A DNA stretch of 49,895 nucleotides from a virus, in the IMG/VR virus record IMGVR_UViG_3300045988_177506; one strand, written 5' to 3'. Both the position numbers and the translations under genes were made by a program. The notes under the pieces are model-generated. The model saw nothing but the letters and a program-made list of their open reading frames with translations, did no database searches and had not been told where the DNA came from. Of the stretch, positions 1,332 through 49,895 are shown piece by piece. The first letter of the stretch is position 1; every line of letters begins with the position of its first letter.

Positions 1332-1502
1332 TTACTCCAATTTCATAATCACGATTTCGCCATTTCTTTCAACCGCCGCCAAAGTGTCGTTTACTGTAAA
1401 CCCTACACTTTCTACAATTTTTTTAGGAAGTCTGACAATATAGCTTGCTGTCTTGACTTTCCCCGTATCCTTATCGACACGTATCTGTACCGTCATTTTC
1501 AT
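1332..1502 (-). CDS. AbrB/MazE/SpoVT-type swapped-hairpin DNA-binding protein (55 aa), first gene of the early operon
   Basis: Translation MKMTVQIRVDKDTGKVKTASYIVRLPKKIVESVGFTVNDTLAAVERNGEIVIMKLE. RBS AAGGAG lies 10 nt upstream. Below the 60-aa ORF-track cutoff. Sits directly downstream of the consensus promoter at 1536..1564. Confidence 0.65.
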   Translation of the reverse strand: MKMTVQIRVDKDTGKVKTASYIVRLPKKIVESVGFTVNDTLAAVERNGEIVIMKLE

Positions 1503-1535
1503 AAGTTATCACGCTCCTTGTTTGTTTATGCCCCT

Positions 1536-1564
1536 ATTATAACACCGATTTCGTACGAAGTCAA
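1536..1564 (-). promoter_or_regulatory. Sigma-70-type promoter TTGACT-17-TATAAT driving the early (-) operon
   Basis: rc reads TTGACTtcgtacgaaatcggtgtTATAAT, about 25 nt upstream of the AbrB-like RBS. Confidence 0.65.
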
Positions 1565-1577
1565 GCGTTTTCGTAAC

Positions 1578-1619
1578 ATTTTGCAAAAATTATTTTTTAT
1601 TTTGCGAAAATTATTTTTC
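1578..1619. promoter_or_regulatory. Tandem 21-bp direct repeat (ATTTTGCaAAAATTATTTTTt x2) between the divergent promoters; candidate operator or UP element
   Basis: attttgcaaaaattatttttt / attttgcgaaaattatttttc, read directly. Confidence 0.55.
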
Positions 1620-1638
1620 AAAAACCATCTTAAAACAC

Positions 1639-1667
1639 TTGACAACCTCTTTTTTATGTGTTATAAT
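1639..1667 (+). promoter_or_regulatory. Perfect sigma-70 consensus promoter TTGACA-17-TATAAT (+ strand)
   Basis: ttgacaacctcttttttatgtgttataat. No ORF downstream. Confidence 0.7.
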
Positions 1668-1674
1668 AGCCACG

Positions 1675-2525
1675 AAATGTAGGGCTTCACCTACCGCGCA
1701 ATATGTTTTGACCTAAAGTATTGCCATTTCCTAACTGCATATTTGGATGTCAAAGTTCTCGCATATGTTTCTGGGTCTCTCGAAAGAGAAAACATATCGG
1801 GGGCTTTTTCTTATACTTTGACATTAAATCGCGAAAGTTGTCCTGCGTTAAAAGGTACAACGGGTGGCTCTGAGTTCAAACACGTGAAGAGCAACTGCAA
1901 AGTGGGGTAAACGCTATGATACCACAATAATCTCGACGGCGGGCTTGGTGAACTGATTTTAGATAGGCAGTGGAGCGCAGGGCAGTTCTTGTGCGACGAT
2001 ACTGTGTGTAGCTGAAATGCTACACGTATGCGTGTTTGACAAGGGCTTGTTGGGTAGAAACTTCAACGACGGACGATGAAGACGTCTTTATTCTCTTGTG
2101 TGTACTTGTTCCTCTTTTGCAGGGATAGGTATGCACAAGAGCGTGAGTGAGTATGTTCTTAACTCTGAACGATGTACCATGTACTAATAAACTAAGTACA
2201 GAGTATATAGAGTATAAGATTACTACTAAGCATATCGGTAATATAACATGGAATACTCGTATAATTACGAATAAATAAGCAATAGAAGAAGAAATAGTTT
2301 ACATATACTAAACAAATAGAGATAGTATACAAAGAAAAATAAAAAACACGTGTCCGAGGTAACAGATGGTAAGCAATGGACACAGATAGAAGTGAAACAG
2401 TTAGTTCGCTTATTAACTCTTAAAGACAGAGCTGCTTCATATGTTTTATTCATATTTATCCTTTACAAGAGGGGTGACCCGTTCAGTTTTCGATGATTTA
2501 CTGGGCGGGTTGCTTCTTTTTTATT
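1675..2525 (+). ncRNA. Candidate large non-coding RNA (about 850 nt), running from promoter to terminator with no ORF
   Basis: No ORF of 60 aa or more in any frame across 1503..2805, apart from two low-complexity antisense ORFs. Bounded by the consensus promoter and an intrinsic terminator. Contains hairpins (e.g. catatgttt...aaacatatc, cttcaacgacggacgatgaag) and an AT-rich low-complexity segment. Confidence 0.45.
2477..2525 (+). terminator. Rho-independent terminator ending the ORF-free + strand unit
   Basis: Stem ACCCGTTCAG/CTGGGCGGGT (10 bp including two G-U pairs) followed by TGCTTCTTTTTTATT. Confidence 0.6.
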
Positions 2526-2761
2526 GGTAGAAAACCCACATATTGCGATAACAACAAATAAGCTTTCTTCCAAAGAAATGCGATCTCGCTCTTAAAAAGC
2601 TAAAAATTAGCAATAATTTCGTGAAATTTGCAAGTCCCGTAAACAATATCTATTCAGCATTGCGATATTAGTGCGAGATTTAAGCTGTGTTGCGTTTTAT
2701 CGTTTCGGTAGGGTAAATTTACGTTTGATAAACAATTCCCGTTAAAATTGAAATTTTAAGG

Positions 2762-27849: not shown

Positions 27850-27874
27850 ATCTCTCTCCTCTTTGCTTTTTTAT

Positions 27875-27903
27875 ATTATACTATAACTTTTTACTTTTGT
27901 CAA
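27875..27903 (-). promoter_or_regulatory. Perfect sigma-70 consensus promoter TTGACA-17-TATAAT driving the packaging/morphogenesis operon
   Basis: rc reads TTGACAaaagtaaaaagttatagTATAAT, about 25 nt before the RBS of the RHH-like ORF. Confidence 0.7.
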
Positions 27904-27912
27904 GTGTTAATA

Positions 27913-27944
27913 AGAGAAAAAACCCCGTACGGTTAAGCACGGGG
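27913..27944 (-). terminator. Intrinsic terminator (- strand) immediately upstream of the late promoter
   Basis: rc reads CCCCGTgcttaaccgtACGGGGttttttctc. Confidence 0.6.
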
Positions 27945-28037
27945 AAAACGAAGAAATCTGCACTTTTCCCTTTTCGCCCCCAAGATTTACCCTGAGGGCG
28001 CGGTGAGGGGGAAAATATGCAAAGGGAATTAACCCTA
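27913..28037 (-). ncRNA. Candidate small RNA (about 120 nt) from the consensus promoter at 28045..28073 to the terminator at 27913..27944
   Basis: Perfect promoter and terminator about 125 nt apart. No ATG and no ORF with an RBS. Internal hairpins (CCCUCAGGG, CCCCC...GGGGG). Confidence 0.45.
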
Positions 28038-28044
28038 CACCACT

Positions 28045-28073
28045 ATTATACAAGCTCTTTCCGCTTTTGTCAA
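28045..28073 (-). promoter_or_regulatory. Perfect sigma-70 consensus promoter TTGACA-17-TATAAT (- strand) inside the large intergenic region
   Basis: rc reads TTGACAaaagcggaaagagcttgTATAAT. Confidence 0.65.
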
Positions 28074-28149
28074 CTATTTTTGCAACATTTATTACACCAA
28101 TTTTTGCGATACACCCTCCACAACATTACCAAAATCACATCCTACAAAT

Positions 28150-29180
28150 ATCACTTTTGTCCATATTTTTAAGCCCCAATGTTCGTTTTGTCCATCACCG
28201 CAAATGCCAATATTTGGGAATTTAAACCCCCGCCACGCCACTTTTTATTTCTCTCTATTGCTTTTTCACTACCCATCTCCTATTCCTGTAGCTCTATCTC
28301 CAGATTACTAATCCCATAGCTTATCATATCCCTCTTGCTATTCATAACTACAGCACAGTCCCTCTTATTAACTCTCAAGACTTCTACTATCTACCCAATC
28401 CCCCATCCCCCCTTTCCCTTTGTTTTGTATTGCCTATTTATCTTGCTATTATTGCTTATTTCTTGTGCTATTTGGTATATCCCCAGCTATAGTACTATAA
28501 TATTTCTCTTGGCTTAGTGTAATTATTTTTTTTGTGTATATTCTTGGGAGTATACTATGAGAATTTTTTTGTGTATTTTTTGAGAGAGTAATAGCATAGT
28601 ACCCAAAAATGCAAAAAATAGGGGCGGGCGGGCATAAAAAACGCACCCACAACCACAGCCACGAACAGCAGTGCCCAAATAACGCCGAAAAATAGCCCTA
28701 ATTTCAGCGTAATATCTTTGGTAGGGTAAATTCACATTTGAAATATTAAAACGAAATACGGGGCAAATTTAAGCGTTTTAAGGGCATACGGGGAAAGGCA
28801 GACAACGGAGCGGGCGGCAAAACGTATTGCATAATATATATTATATATCATTACACGCACGAATAAATAATAATTACGCTTGTATAAATAACAAGACGAT
28901 TTACGACCAAATTGAACACGCGCATATATCTATATTTACACGCTATTATTATATCATTACAAGCGTATAAGAAATCTTTACGCCAATATTTGAGAAATTA
29001 ACCGCGGGGGGGGGTATTTCATAAGCTTGCCAAGATTTACAGGCGTATAGCTTTATAATCTACCGCAAACAATACGCACACGACGGAGCGGGCAACTTTT
29101 ACAAATGCCAATATTTGAGAAAATGCCAATATTTGGGAAACATACACCGCCGGCAAAATGTTCGTTTTGTCCATCTTTTT
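28150..29180. repeat. Iteron-like repeat cluster: GCCAATATTTG(G/A)GAA x4 (28205, 28982, 29105, 29124) and (G/C)TTTTGTCCAT x3 (28153, 28187, 29165); candidate origin or packaging region
   Basis: Repeats read directly. The last two GCCAATATTTG copies are tandem (atgccaatatttgagaaaatgccaatatttgggaaa). Confidence 0.5.
28260..28420. other. Strongly CT-rich (+ strand) low-complexity tract
   Basis: ctcccatctcctattcctgtagctctatctcc...caatcccccatcccccctttcccttt. Confidence 0.5.
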
Positions 29181-29343
29181 AGATATCAATTTTATCTATA
29201 TTTTTATCGATAAATCCATATCAATAAGAACAACCAATATATGCAAGACGCACAGAAAAAGCACGCGGAACTATGCAGGGCGCACAGCGGAAAACCAAAA
29301 AACAAAAAATCGTAAAAAATCTTAAAAAATCATACAAAAACGC

Positions 29344-29372
29344 TTGACAAGCGGGGGAAGGTGTGATATAAT
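29344..29372 (+). promoter_or_regulatory. Perfect sigma-70 consensus promoter TTGACA-17-TATAAT for the + strand cassette
   Basis: ttgacaagcgggggaaggtgtgatataat. The 5' leader carries a hairpin AGCTTG...CAAGCT. Confidence 0.7.
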
Positions 29373-29439
29373 GAAGGTGAGCTTGAAAGGAAACGCGAGG
29401 CGCGGCAAGCTTAAAAACAAAAAAACGGAGAAAACAAAA

Positions 29440-30084
29440 ATGAAAAAATTAAACGAAATCAGAGAAGAAAGACAGGCGAACGCGGCAAGGGTCGCAGAGC
29501 TTAACGAAAAAATTGACAGAGCAGTGAACAGCTGGCGGACGAAGGAGCCGTTTCCGGAAGACTTCGCGGCGTTGGGCGCCGAACTCGCGACGGCAAAGAA
29601 AATCGGGGCGATTTTGAAAAACAATTATAACAACCGACTCGCGGCGGAGGTGCTGCCGGCGTTGGTGGAAATCCTGAAAAAATACAACGGCAAGAAGTAC
29701 GGCGAAAAGACGAAGGAAAAGATGGGCGAAGAGTTCAAAGCGATGACGGGTTGCGGCATTTGGTTAGAGCGTTATGTGTTCTCGCAAAAAAGCAATCACG
29801 CCCATATATACGAGATGCGCGACGGATACAGACACGGCGAAGAAATCGAGTTTTTCACAAATTCAAATAACATCATCAGCGAAGACAACGTTATACAGGC
29901 GCAACCGGCGGAAGCTTTCAGACTTTACGACTTCGGCGAATATATCGAAACACCGGCGGAAAGGGTCGCACAGCTTGCGGAAAAGAAAAAAGAGCTTGAC
30001 GAGATGCGGGCGGCGTTCAATAAAGCGGTAGACGCTTACAACGCTTTGACCGTCAACGGCATTGACCACGAAAAAAGAGCATAA
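29440..30084 (+). CDS. Hypothetical protein (first gene of the GC-rich + cassette)
   Basis: Start MKKLNEIREE with GGAG 9 nt upstream. GC content is visibly higher than in the surrounding genome. Confidence 0.6.
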   Translation: MKKLNEIREERQANAARVAELNEKIDRAVNSWRTKEPFPEDFAALGAELATAKKIGAILKNNYNNRLAAEVLPALVEILKKYNGKKYGEKTKEKMGEEFKAMTGCGIWLERYVFSQKSNHAHIYEMRDGYRHGEEIEFFTNSNNIISEDNVIQAQPAEAFRLYDFGEYIETPAERVAQLAEKKKELDEMRAAFNKAVDAYNALTVNGIDHEKRA

Positions 30085-30098
30085 AGGAGGGCAAAACA

Positions 30099-30836
30099 AT
30101 GAAATTTTACAAAACTTCTAACGGGCTGGAACTTCTGACAGACTGGGCGGGCGATTGCCACGACTGCAAAACGTACAACAAGAACCAACAGAGAGCAAGA
30201 GAGGCGGCGGGGAAGCTTTTACATTCCGGCAATTTGATTTTTGAACACGGAAACACCCCGCGCAATTCTTCCGAATTTGTGGCGAATATGCCTTACACCT
30301 CGGCAAGCGACTTTGCGGCGTTGTGGGCGACTTGTGCATATTGTGCCTATCAGATTAAAAACAGACAAACGAAGCTTTATTTGGTGGGTATTGCGTTAAC
30401 CGATGCCCAGGCGGTCAGCGTGTGGAGAGATTGCGAAAGCAATTATATTTTTGAAATTGTCGGCGAAGAACCGAAGGCGCAGCCGATTATATTAAACACA
30501 GATAGCGACATCGCAAGCGTGGCGGTTGACTGCGGAAACGGCAATATTATTACTTACGAAAAAGCAAACGGAGCGGACGGGGACACCAGCGTTATAATTT
30601 TCGCAAGCTACGACGCATATATTAAATATTGCGCACGTCGAAATATTGACACTTTGCACGACGTGAAAAACATTGCAACGGCGAGATTTAACGGGGCGAA
30701 TATATGCCAATCTGATTGCGCCGGGCTGCACGGTGAAAAAGAGATCCCGGACGCCGAAAAGGTTTACACGCTTTCGGGCAGATTTGCTATAAAAGCTAAA
30801 GATGATGCCGTATATTTTGTAAAAATTGAGGAGTAA
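30099..30836 (+). CDS. Hypothetical Cys-containing protein (second gene of the + cassette)
   Basis: RBS AAGGAGG. ORF. Confidence 0.6.
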   Translation: MKFYKTSNGLELLTDWAGDCHDCKTYNKNQQRAREAAGKLLHSGNLIFEHGNTPRNSSEFVANMPYTSASDFAALWATCAYCAYQIKNRQTKLYLVGIALTDAQAVSVWRDCESNYIFEIVGEEPKAQPIILNTDSDIASVAVDCGNGNIITYEKANGADGDTSVIIFASYDAYIKYCARRNIDTLHDVKNIATARFNGANICQSDCAGLHGEKEIPDAEKVYTLSGRFAIKAKDDAVYFVKIEE

Positions 30837-30839
30837 AAA

Positions 30840-31883
30840 ATGGTTGAAAACGTTTACAACGGCGAAGACATAGCCGAATTTTTAACCGGCTGCGGGTGCG
30901 GGTGCGAGTTTCGCGCTCGTACCTTTTCGCCCTCTTCGGTTGTGTATTTCTTTGATTTAATAAACCCAATGACCACGGCGGCAAAAATGCGGGCGGCGGT
31001 TCGGGCGGTCGCCTTAACAATTCACAAAACGGCGATTTTAACAGATGGCGGGAAGTATAACTTTGCCATCGCGATCCCACGCGAAAACCGAAGCTTCCCC
31101 ACCTTTTACGACGTAGCAAACACCGGGCAGACATCCCCAAAAGATGGAGATATAACCTTCGGGATAAAAGAGGACGGGGAAAGGCTTACGGCAAACATCA
31201 ACAGCCTTCCGCACCTGCTTATCAGCGGAGCGAGCGGCAGCGGCAAAAGCGTTTTTATGCATTCGGTCATTGCGTCGCTTTCGTGTTTCTCTGCCCCTTA
31301 TAAATGCGATTTTGTGATGATTGACATGAAAGGCACGGAGCTGACACCCTGGCACAATTCCCGCCGGCTTATTCGTCCAGTGATAACGAACGCACGCGAG
31401 GCAGTCCAAGCCCTTGGCGACGTCGAAGCAACAATGAACAATCGATATAAAAAGCTCATAGCCCGCGGAAAAATTGACAACTCGGCGGGCGATTTCCCCC
31501 GGCTGGTGGTTTTCGTCGACGAACTGGCAGATCTCATGCTTTACAAGAAAAAGGAAGCAACAAGGTTTTTAACCAGCATAGCACAAAAAGGCAGGGCGGC
31601 GGGGGTTCATTTGATACTCGCAACGCAGCGCCCCTCGGTGGATGTTGTAACGGGACTAATTAAAGCGAACATTCCGGCGCGCGCAGTTTTCTCCACTACT
31701 TCCGCAATCGATAGCATGGTAATGCTCGGACACAAAGGAGCGGAACAGCTCAAAGGCAAGGGCGATAGCCTGGTGAAACTCCCCAACGGTACCGAATACC
31801 ACGTACAGGCACCAAATTTTACGGCGCAAATGATATACAACGTCACCCACCCGCGCCGAACACTCCCGGACATTTTCAACTAA
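30840..31883 (+). CDS. FtsK/SpoIIIE-family P-loop DNA translocase-like ATPase
   Basis: Walker A GASGSGKS, Walker B VVFVDELADL, and LATQRPSVDVVTGLIKANIPARAVFS, a motif typical of FtsK/SpoIIIE/TraB-type motors. Confidence 0.7.
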   Translation: MVENVYNGEDIAEFLTGCGCGCEFRARTFSPSSVVYFFDLINPMTTAAKMRAAVRAVALTIHKTAILTDGGKYNFAIAIPRENRSFPTFYDVANTGQTSPKDGDITFGIKEDGERLTANINSLPHLLISGASGSGKSVFMHSVIASLSCFSAPYKCDFVMIDMKGTELTPWHNSRRLIRPVITNAREAVQALGDVEATMNNRYKKLIARGKIDNSAGDFPRLVVFVDELADLMLYKKKEATRFLTSIAQKGRAAGVHLILATQRPSVDVVTGLIKANIPARAVFSTTSAIDSMVMLGHKGAEQLKGKGDSLVKLPNGTEYHVQAPNFTAQMIYNVTHPRRTLPDIFN

Positions 31884-32433: not shown

Positions 32434-32695
32434 TTAGTTTTATCTCCTCGGCGCAATACTCTACGCCTAAAAAATCAAGTTGCGCGATCCGGCGGTCATA
32501 CAGCCATTTTATAGCTTGTTGGCGCCCGTATTCCGTAAATGGGAAATAACAAGTTTCGCCGCAACAAAAAGCACGCAAAAAATGCGGCTCGTTGATTGAG
32601 TATACTTCAATGGCGAAGTTGTAAGATATATCGCCGTACCGATGATATGGTTTCAAGTCCGATAACGGCGGAATGTTAATCGATTTTATTTTCAT
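32426..32695 (-). CDS. Hypothetical protein
   Basis: ORF. Confidence 0.45.
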   Translation of the reverse strand: MKIKSINIPPLSDLKPYHRYGDISYNFAIEVYSINEPHFLRAFCCGETCYFPFTEYGRQQAIKWLYDRRIAQLDFLGVEYCAEEIKLND

Positions 32696-32909
32696 TTATT
32701 TTCAGTCCTTGTTGGTCAAGTATAACACAATCACCCACTGTTGGCAAATAGTCCAATTCGTAAGCCCATAGTTCTTCTTGCGTAAGTTGGCGGTCGTAAA
32801 TTAGTATGTCGTAATATTTGCCAGTTGGGTCATCTAAACGCAAGATAAACCCATTGGGTTGGCATCCTATCGAACAACCACGCAAACGCATACCGTAAAA
32901 ATATTTCAT
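32676..32909 (-). CDS. Hypothetical protein
   Basis: ORF. Confidence 0.45.
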   Translation of the reverse strand: MKYFYGMRLRGCSIGCQPNGFILRLDDPTGKYYDILIYDRQLTQEELWAYELDYLPTVGDCVILDQQGLKINENKID

Positions 32910-49286: not shown

Positions 49287-49823
49287 TTAAGCCTCCCAAT
49301 TTTTCAAACGTTCAAGATACTTGTCAAACTGACATTTAGGAGCCTTATCCAAATCAATGCAGTCGCATTCTACCGCAATGGCTTTCAATTCAGCATTGGT
49401 TATCCCTGTTTGTTTTTGGATAGCAAGGATCTGCTTTCTGCGAATGTCTTTCAAAGACGGTGCAGGGGCAGGTTCAGCTTTTTCGGCAGTTGTATACTTT
49501 GTTTTATCGTTTTCCCAATAAACATCCGCGCCAATACCCAAATATTTGCACGCATTTCCTAACGCATCGGTTATCGCCATTTTATACGCCTCGTCGCTCG
49601 CATTGAACGTCTTCTTGCTAACGACATAACTGACCATTCTATTCCCGCCAACACCTGTAATCGGCTTACCCCATTCGTCCCCAAATTTTACATACAAATC
49701 AATTTCGGCAAAAGCAAGACGTTCTCCGGTGCTAACTTCTTCTGTCCACAATCTTTTGATTTCATAGTACCACCCAAAGCCACACGCACCAAATTCGCTT
49801 GTAAGCATTTTTACGCGCCACAT
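49287..49823 (-). CDS. Erf-family single-strand annealing protein
   Basis: ITDALGNACKYLGIGADVY matches the Erf motif (cf. P22 Erf SYARKYCLNGLFGIDD). Upstream of Gp157; the gene start lies in the terminal overlap. Confidence 0.55.
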   Translation of the reverse strand: MWRVKMLTSEFGACGFGWYYEIKRLWTEEVSTGERLAFAEIDLYVKFGDEWGKPITGVGGNRMVSYVVSKKTFNASDEAYKMAITDALGNACKYLGIGADVYWENDKTKYTTAEKAEPAPAPSLKDIRRKQILAIQKQTGITNAELKAIAVECDCIDLDKAPKCQFDKYLERLKNWEA

Positions 49824-49895
49824 TGTGTTTATATCCGTCCCCTTAAAACGTCCATTATCAAACGCTTTTAGGGCGTCTGACGGTACGGCACGGAA
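49777..49895. repeat. Second copy of the 119-bp terminal overlap
   Basis: Identical to 1..119. Confidence 0.9.

Follow-up and report, generated by a model that had tools for sequence, protein, structure and literature searches.

A conserved, putatively structured noncoding RNA gene and an AbrB-like gene under divergent promoters at the lysogeny position of an uncultured phage

The IMG/VR virus record IMGVR_UViG_3300045988_177506 (hereafter the window, i.e., the whole 49,895-nt stretch of DNA analysed) raises a question at the junction of its late-operon end and its early-operon start, which is the site of two back-to-back promoters: is the region between them the operator of a genetic switch, and what do the promoters drive? 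A first-pass annotation had proposed such a switch, in which a small AbrB-like protein encoded by the first early gene would act on two tandem 21-bp repeats between the promoters. The analysis presented here favours, with moderate confidence, another overall reading: two strong divergent promoters, provided with A/T tracts resembling upstream (UP) elements, would serve the early operon and a noncoding unit of about 850 nt, which together with the AbrB-like gene replaces the lysogeny module and may be an origin transcript.

An identical 119-nt overlap joins positions 1-119 and 49777-49895, from which circular assembly follows; the window thus represents an entire phage genome of about 49.8 kb. 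Relatives were compared at more than one level. Twelve strain-level relatives, which are 95.1-100% identical across the gap between the late and early genes, were obtained from look-ups of the AbrB-like protein, a scan for the Gp157 protein and scans for DNA patterns. A sister species was reached via its Gp157 homologue (64% identity) and presents the same layout, i.e., late genes, a 1.25-kb gap free of open reading frames (ORFs), a first early gene of 56 amino acids (aa) and homologues of the next early genes. Through the two 56-aa proteins and the sister Gp157, 25 related contigs were fetched. Besides the two species, the recombinant L127 constitutes a third lineage carrying the RNA described below.

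The two promoters are present where the first-pass annotation had placed them. The rightward promoter, P(+), lies at 1639-1667 on the plus strand, reads TTGACA-17-TATAAT (12/12 consensus positions) with the TG of an extended -10 element, and is the promoter of the noncoding unit, with a predicted start near 1672-1675. The leftward promoter, P(-), lies at 1564-1536 on the minus strand, reads TTGACT-17-TATAAT (11/12), also with TG, and heads the early operon, with a predicted start near 1529. The annotated distance of 74 bp between the -35 hexamers was likewise recovered (1565-1638). Besides the 11/12 match of P(-), six perfect 12/12 matches to TTGACA-17-TATAAT occur in the genome (1639+, 27903-, 28073-, 29344+, 35468- and 47523-), in comparison with a chance expectation of roughly 0.006, estimated as about 1e5 positions x 4^-12. 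The P(-) hexamers are invariant across the twelve strains, and the sister species has TTGACA-17-TATAAT with a different spacer. In that species both divergent promoters retain their hexamers and the 17-nt spacing while the spacers differ almost completely, which is the pattern expected of functional promoters. Judged from these sequences, both promoters appear genuine and of the host primary-sigma (sigma-70/sigma-A) type. As a separate observation, six perfect promoters in one 50-kb genome, each with phased upstream A-tracts, give the impression of a phage wholly reliant on very strong host-type promoters.

The first-pass annotation had also held that P(+) drives a unit yielding RNA and not protein, and the sequence agrees with this. 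No credible ORF occurs in 1668-2804, and in none of the 25 related contigs did gene callers place a gene in the corresponding stretch. Coding potential of the conserved part is unlikely, since it holds short ORFs only and 1-nt indels between the species break any reading frame spanning them. When the segment 1674-2525 was folded and compared with shuffled sequences, z was -5.7 on the plus strand and -1.8 on the minus strand. The conserved core of about 505 nt (1674-2178, plus strand) is 91.7% identical at the nucleotide level between the two species. The values for the rest of the locus in this species pair are 58-65% for the AbrB-like gene, gene 2, gene 3 and Gp157, 63% for the control region and 72% for the last late gene.

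The consensus structure obtained with RNAalifold has 145 pairs, and 99.9% of the cells are compatible with pairing, in comparison with 33-51% when the partners are slid. Compensatory double changes are observed at pairs 38/54 (AU to GC), 215/372 (UA/AU/CG) and 216/371 (GC/AU), and pair 347/356 presents a GC/GU/AU series. Variation is depleted threefold in stems: 22 of the 290 paired columns vary, compared with 58 of the 236 unpaired ones (Fisher p = 8e-8; 19 distinct sequences). These values suggest the ORF-free unit is a conserved structured noncoding RNA gene that had previously been unclassified. The predicted core comprises, all on the plus strand, a 5' hairpin (1679-1694), a second hairpin (1698-1724), a terminator-like hairpin (1754-1805, or up to 1812 with its U-run), a multi-branch domain closed by the long-range helix 1874-1885/2030-2040, and a 26-bp hairpin (2088-2146). 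Pairs 215/372 and 216/371 are located in the long-range helix. The terminator-like hairpin may release a short form of about 135 nt, or may simply be part of the fold, given that it is enclosed by the helix 1746-1753/1818-1825.

No homologue of this RNA was found beyond the carriers named above. The models of Rfam 15 (including GOLLD, ROOL, 6S, RNase P and group I/II introns) gave no match at gathering thresholds over the whole window, and the best hit over 1500-2900 was to a microRNA hairpin model with E = 0.15. Exact 18-19-mers of the core retrieved only the same species or chance matches from viral, genome and metagenome collections. Neither nhmmer together with a covariance model of the central domain, applied to about 100 fetched loci and the rest of the window, nor blastn in near and distant modes against GenBank phages returned an RNA homologue. 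When the neighbouring 111-aa, 132-aa and DUF7841 proteins were used as handles, only the same IMG/VR contig was retrieved, and the 80 loci with relatives of a 204-aa protein contain no comparable gap.

The core ends sharply at 2178 and is followed on the plus strand by an A-rich hypervariable tail (2179-2466, with 71% AT), which is 71-74% AT across lineages and not alignable between them. Its length is 293, 218 and 189 nt in the three lineages, which share a sole island, ATACTAAACAAA (window 2305-2316), and it includes the 200-bp window that ranks second in the genome for AT content. An iteron-like WATACTA motif was considered in the tail and discarded, as it is not enriched in the window. Strain L011 bears a 30-nt tandem duplication at the tail start, corresponding to window position ~2168. 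The unit closes with a long-stem intrinsic terminator (2467-2526, plus strand; a 21-bp stem with G-U pairs and a U-run; -28.9 kcal/mol, z = -6.6), and in the sister species this place is occupied by a terminator with another sequence (-27 kcal/mol). The late operon ends on the minus strand in a terminator of its own at 2763-2799 (hairpin 2770-2799, U-run 2763-2769; -17.9 kcal/mol, z = -4.2), located directly after the stop codon (2805-2807) of the last late gene.

Two further observations concern this end of the unit. In the sister species, a promoter-like site (TTGACT-17-TATACT with TG; L099:4107-4135, plus strand) lies about 95 nt beyond the RNA terminator and faces the RNA 3' end, from where it might give rise to antisense RNA; no counterpart scoring at least 10/12 exists in the window. 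A 22-nt element, GGTAGGGTAAATTYACRTTTGA, is present in one copy in each of the two large noncoding regions of the genome (2707-2728 and 28720-28741), and the copy at 2707 falls within 2679-2804, a segment about 80% conserved with the sister species.

What stands at this position in other phages was determined by synteny. The other Gp157 relatives examined (six lineages, 45-56% identity) are all temperate in type. At the same position their early operon opens with a Cro-like helix-turn-helix (HTH) gene, and a CI-like HTH gene lies on the opposite strand; beyond the CI-like gene, contigs that reach that far carry an integrase (L104-L106, L110 and, probably, L114 with its cut 374-aa gene). The region is therefore, in terms of position, a switch locus. 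In the window, no integrase or CI-like Pfam domain was recognised among the 48 proteins scanned, and the integrase, CI and Cro of the relatives have no tblastn match anywhere in the genome, which bears out the earlier statement that this phage lacks a CI-like repressor and an integrase. Synteny thus shows a replacement: in the two sister species the RNA and the AbrB-like gene take the place of the CI/Cro (and integrase) module. In terms of a CI/Cro-type switch, there is no repressor on the opposite arm, no integrase, and no repeated operator overlapping the core promoters.

The AbrB-like gene itself (1332-1502, minus strand; ribosome-binding site (RBS) AAGGAG at 1514-1519 on the same strand) thus sits in the Cro position of the temperate relatives. 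The domain assigned to its product by the first-pass annotation stands and the length of 55 aa does not: the protein has 56 aa, and residues 18-54 match Pfam PF04014 (MazE_antitoxin, SpoVT/AbrB domain) with E = 1.5e-7 and 31.7 bits, above the cutoff of 24.7. The AlphaFold (AF2) model has a predicted local distance difference test (pLDDT) score of 86 and a beta-beta-alpha-beta-beta order (strands 3-9, 16-23, 41-46 and 49-54; helix 27-33). It describes a monomer, a form of model in which dimer swapping is not visible. Its best Foldseek matches in the PDB are C56/pSSVi, MazE, C68/pSSVx, AbrB-N and SpoVT, with probabilities of 0.8-0.99 and weak E-values of 0.02-1. Among 5.8 billion proteins only two clusters were found, i.e., the window species and the sister at 50% identity, and the protein and the RNA co-occur exclusively. 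Given its position and fold, the protein probably acts as infection proceeds to down-regulate these very strong promoters of the early phase, perhaps through coating of the A/T tracts, a role to which we give just under even confidence.

For the RNA, the most likely function, although we put it at somewhat less than an even chance, is to act in cis as an origin transcript, priming or activating replication within the AT-rich tail. This proposal is drawn by analogy with the lactococcal Ceduovirus (phage c2), in which the early promoter PE1 yields the transcript PE1-T from a noncoding region that separates the early and late clusters (PMC7150918). PE1-T is required for replication and its structure matters, and Ceduovirus origins are >90% conserved within a type (PMC7150918). 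The unit described here also lies between late and early clusters, has a strong early promoter and no RBS or ORF, and is >90% conserved in its core; its tail is among the most AT-rich stretches of the genome. Furthermore, the early proteins scanned include a recognisable helicase but neither an initiator nor a primase; the temperate relatives carry an HTH_36 protein, taken as of the replication-organiser type, and a single-stranded DNA-binding protein (SSB).

The main alternative is that the RNA acts in trans: an ornate phage RNA, made first and abundantly, would bind or sequester a host factor for host take-over or anti-defence, with the AbrB/MazE-like protein possibly an antitoxin mimic. The 505-nt multi-branched structure under selection and the very strong immediate-early promoter are consistent with this, and GOLLD and ROOL provide examples of large structured RNAs associated with phages (PMC12286853). 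Antitoxin mimicry has been proposed for viral AbrB-like proteins of archaeal viruses (PMC11065993). However, the RNA matches no known family, and no partner protein or target is identifiable. The mimic is also at odds with the protein itself, which ends two residues after the domain match. MazE-type antitoxins bind their toxin via a C-terminal tail, which this protein lacks, and no toxin gene is adjacent: the genes downstream encode a zinc-ribbon-like 111-aa protein, a 107-aa protein and Gp157. We regard a trans-acting role as possible but less likely than not.

The question of the operator depends on the 74-bp A/T-tract region between the promoters (1565-1638). Tandem Repeats Finder reports a 21-nt period at 1578-1618 with 2.0 copies, 95% matches and the consensus ATTTTGCAAAAATTATTTTTT, so the two tandem repeats of the first-pass annotation do exist; the copies span 1578-1598 and 1599-1619. 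Beyond these two, a third related site, ATTTTTCAAAAAC, lies at 1613-1625. The common denominator is the unit ATTTT-N3-AAAA, which starts at 1578, 1599 and 1613; the region contains 5 of the 14 matches to this pattern in the genome. Among strains, no part of the control region varies more than the core of the second repeat (1604-1607; GCG, GCGG, TCT, TCA, GCT), and strain variation in general falls mostly in the central N3 of the units, with the arms retained. The sister species has no 21-nt repeat; instead, it has a 13-nt tandem, TTTTTCAAAAAT/ATTTTTCAAAAAC, and strain L008 of the window species is arranged alike. The first-pass annotation had named conservation of the repeats in relatives as its own test, and on this test the repeats fail; the feature that persists is the ATTTT-N3-AAAA unit, three of which lie between the two promoters of the window.

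Nor is the repeat unit special to the control region. An A-tract profile was computed for ten consensus promoters, i.e., seven of the window and three of the sister species, of which about seven are independent given three orthologous pairs. Runs of at least three A are present at -39 to -43 in 9/10, at -50 to -54 in 9/10, and at -63 to -66 in 8/10 of them. Similar A/T tracts precede every other consensus promoter, non-divergent ones included, at positions of about -41, -52 and -65. One ATTTT-N3-AAAA unit centred near -55 accompanies each divergent promoter in the window species and in the sister alike, even though the distance between the promoters is 74 bp in one and 63 bp in the other; hence, the tracts follow the promoters rather than one another. 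With the promoters pointing in opposite directions, what is an A-tract for one is a T-tract for the other, which accounts for both the palindrome-like look of the units and their period of roughly two helical turns (21 nt). Phased upstream A-tracts, or UP elements, are reportedly the layout of strong sigma-A promoters. The 21-bp repeats are hence most likely, by their sequence, the ordinary UP-like A/T-tract architecture common to two divergent promoters, and the tracts most likely raise promoter strength as UP-like or curved-DNA elements, given their position. In itself, the control region is mainly a clean example of textbook strong-promoter architecture.

The model of the first-pass annotation, in which an AbrB-like repressor bound to the two 21-bp repeats switches expression between the early operon and the RNA arm, is rather unlikely in view of these results. 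Part of what it was built on stands, namely the divergent promoters, the AbrB-fold first gene, the RNA arm and the position of a switch locus, whereas the reading of the repeats as a dedicated operator is not supported by their sequence. The first early gene does encode a protein with a DNA-binding fold where temperate relatives have Cro-like genes, and this protein co-occurs exclusively with the RNA; moreover, the clustering of three units between the promoters, and the variation of their centres with arms kept, are what palindromic sites would present. Against this, the 21-nt repeat is absent from the sister species, where the tandem and its spacing differ, and like tracts occupy the same positions at all other consensus promoters. 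No repeat overlaps a -35 or -10 hexamer, as the repeats sit between the -35 boxes. Finally, the start sites of P(+) and P(-) are about 145 bp apart, so that under an assumed RNA polymerase footprint of -55 to +20 the promoters would not compete sterically; given they are far enough apart for independent firing, geometry imposes no either/or switch.

Three other operator candidates were considered and rejected. The sister species does not preserve the palindrome TTCGTACGAA (1550-1559) of the P(-) spacer, and TTCGTA shows no enrichment. The motif TTTTGCRA is also found upstream of the promoters at 28073 and 47523, yet the general A-tract pattern accounts for it. The conserved leader GGCATAAACAAA occurs only once.

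It is very improbable that the A/T palindromes are sites of a host global regulator such as CodY, which would link early phage transcription to host nutrition. One site, B (1598-1612), matches at 12/15 positions what we take to be the CodY consensus, AATTTTCWGAAAATT; however, it is the one match with at most three mismatches in the region, and genome-wide 6 such matches are found compared with 7.8 expected by chance. Still less credible is that the gap is a decaying remnant of a lost lysogeny module with P(+) a functionless leftover, since, although the relatives have integrase and CI at this position and the tail is hypervariable, none of their integrase, CI and Cro genes is detected by tblastn in the gap or elsewhere in the genome, the core is better conserved than the adjacent early genes and has compensatory pair changes, and promoter and terminator are both retained in two species.

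Under the favoured reading, i.e., strong divergent promoters serving the early operon and a possible origin transcript, host RNA polymerase would fire both promoters upon entry, aided by the shared A/T tracts. P(-) would express the early operon, beginning with the AbrB-fold protein, which by position and fold would be the best candidate for the later shut-off of these very strong promoters. P(+) would make the noncoding unit of about 850 nt, comprising the 505-nt folded RNA, the AT-rich variable tail and the strong terminator, and this long-stem terminator would shield the convergent late genes from antisense transcription.

Several points weigh against this reading. The evidence for UP-element function is positional, and binding of the AbrB-like protein to the tracts is compatible with their sequence, yet nothing in it requires such binding. 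Proteins of the AbrB type bind AT-rich DNA with loose specificity, so the A/T tracts could also be operators. The start sites, ends and abundance of the RNA are deduced from sequence. The RNA is carried by only two species and the recombinant lineage L127, and given so few lineages (two to three), most of its pairs are invariant and covariation falls on about five pairs. Part of its conservation could reflect recent common descent, because the late modules of the two species are closely related (87-95% nucleotide identity). As for the proposed origin, the iteron-like repeats of the second ORF-poor region, at 27.85-29.34 kb, make that region a rival candidate, no GenBank phage, whether of the c2 type or another, shows sequence similarity, and the tail has no enrichment of a repeated motif in the window.

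That second region (27850-29340) lies between the perfect promoters 27903(-), 28073(-) and 29344(+), just upstream of the terminase genes. Its iteron-like repeats are GCCAATATTTGRGAA, at 28206, 28982, 29107 and 29125, and TGTTCGTTTTGTCCAT, at 28180 and 29159 with a variant at 28155; the region is a candidate pac site or origin. Next to it, 29344-31883 is the only sizeable plus-strand block, with three genes under its own consensus promoter, the last of which encodes an FtsK/SpoIIIE-family ATPase (E = 1.4e-35). On the minus strand, 32676-32909 encodes a 77-aa protein with a DarA_C (defence against restriction) domain (E = 1.1e-11), for which an anti-restriction function is possible.

In the rest of the genome, the minus strand carries nearly all genes, so that transcription would run almost wholly leftward, and the products include an SPP1-type portal, a large terminase, a DnaB-like helicase, several DNA methylases and a Gp157/Gam-like protein. 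No close relative of the genome was found among GenBank phages with blastn in near and distant modes, the latter covering 50,697 phage records; the closest cultured portal is that of Clostridium phage Maintenon, with 27% identity. With respect to the host, the sole match to a Gp157 relative among genomes is a fecal Eubacteriales metagenome-assembled genome. The phage recurs in public, mostly human-gut, metagenome assemblies, where its first early protein is found on 94 contigs and the uncultured lineage as a whole on >170.

The significance of the locus lies in what the promoters drive: a large, conserved and apparently folded RNA of no known family, at the very site of the lysogeny genes in related phages. 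Should it be an origin transcript, RNA-dependent phage origins would no longer be limited to the dairy phages of lactococci and would include a far more elaborate RNA. Should it act in trans, the large phage RNAs would gain a new example, one for which promoter, terminator and partner gene are defined. As a tentative proposal, which we consider doubtful at present, the 505-nt RNA may be the first representative of a novel class among the large structured RNAs of phages; with a lineage-specific AbrB-fold protein, it would have taken over the CI/Cro-integrase slot, both genomic and regulatory, and would act as an RNA-primed origin or as an RNA regulator or decoy setting the infection programme.

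In comparison with the lambda-type CI/Cro switch, as found in the temperate relatives, the locus has the same genomic position, back-to-back promoters and a small DNA-binding protein as the first early gene. In contrast, its opposite arm is an RNA and not a repressor and integrase, its protein has the AbrB fold and not HTH, no operators lie over the core promoters, and by their estimated footprints the promoters have no steric overlap.

The tracts resemble the UP elements and phased A-tracts of sigma-A/sigma-70 promoters, with A-tracts at about -41, -52 and -65 in 8-9 of 10 promoters with extended -10 elements. They differ in that one 74-bp tract serves two divergent promoters, which yields the palindrome-like units and the apparent 21-nt tandem repeat.

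The first early protein shares with AbrB/MazE/SpoVT proteins, including C56 (pSSVi) and C68 (pSSVx) of virus-plasmid hybrids, the Pfam domain, the 56-aa size and the predicted beta-beta-alpha-beta-beta fold. Yet its identity to solved members is 11-27% over the Foldseek alignments, and it has no toxin partner and no C-terminal extension.

GOLLD and ROOL are found near tRNA genes. The RNA described here, whose sequence neither of the two Rfam models matches, is confined to two phage species and sits at an early-promoter hub. It is nevertheless akin to both in being a large (>500 nt), highly structured RNA borne by a phage (PMC12286853).

The closest parallel in layout is the PE1-T origin of c2, although homology to the Ceduovirus ori types was not detected by blastn in distant mode among the 50,697 phage records. 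The early and late blocks of c2 diverge from the origin, whereas here the RNA unit is convergent with the late genes and divergent from the early operon. The RNA is also larger, with a 505-nt multi-branch core, and its origin role is a prediction. What the two have in common is a noncoding stretch, without RBS or ORF, that separates the late from the early cluster and has a host-type early promoter, a transcript whose sequence and structure appear to matter, and conservation above 90% within a type.

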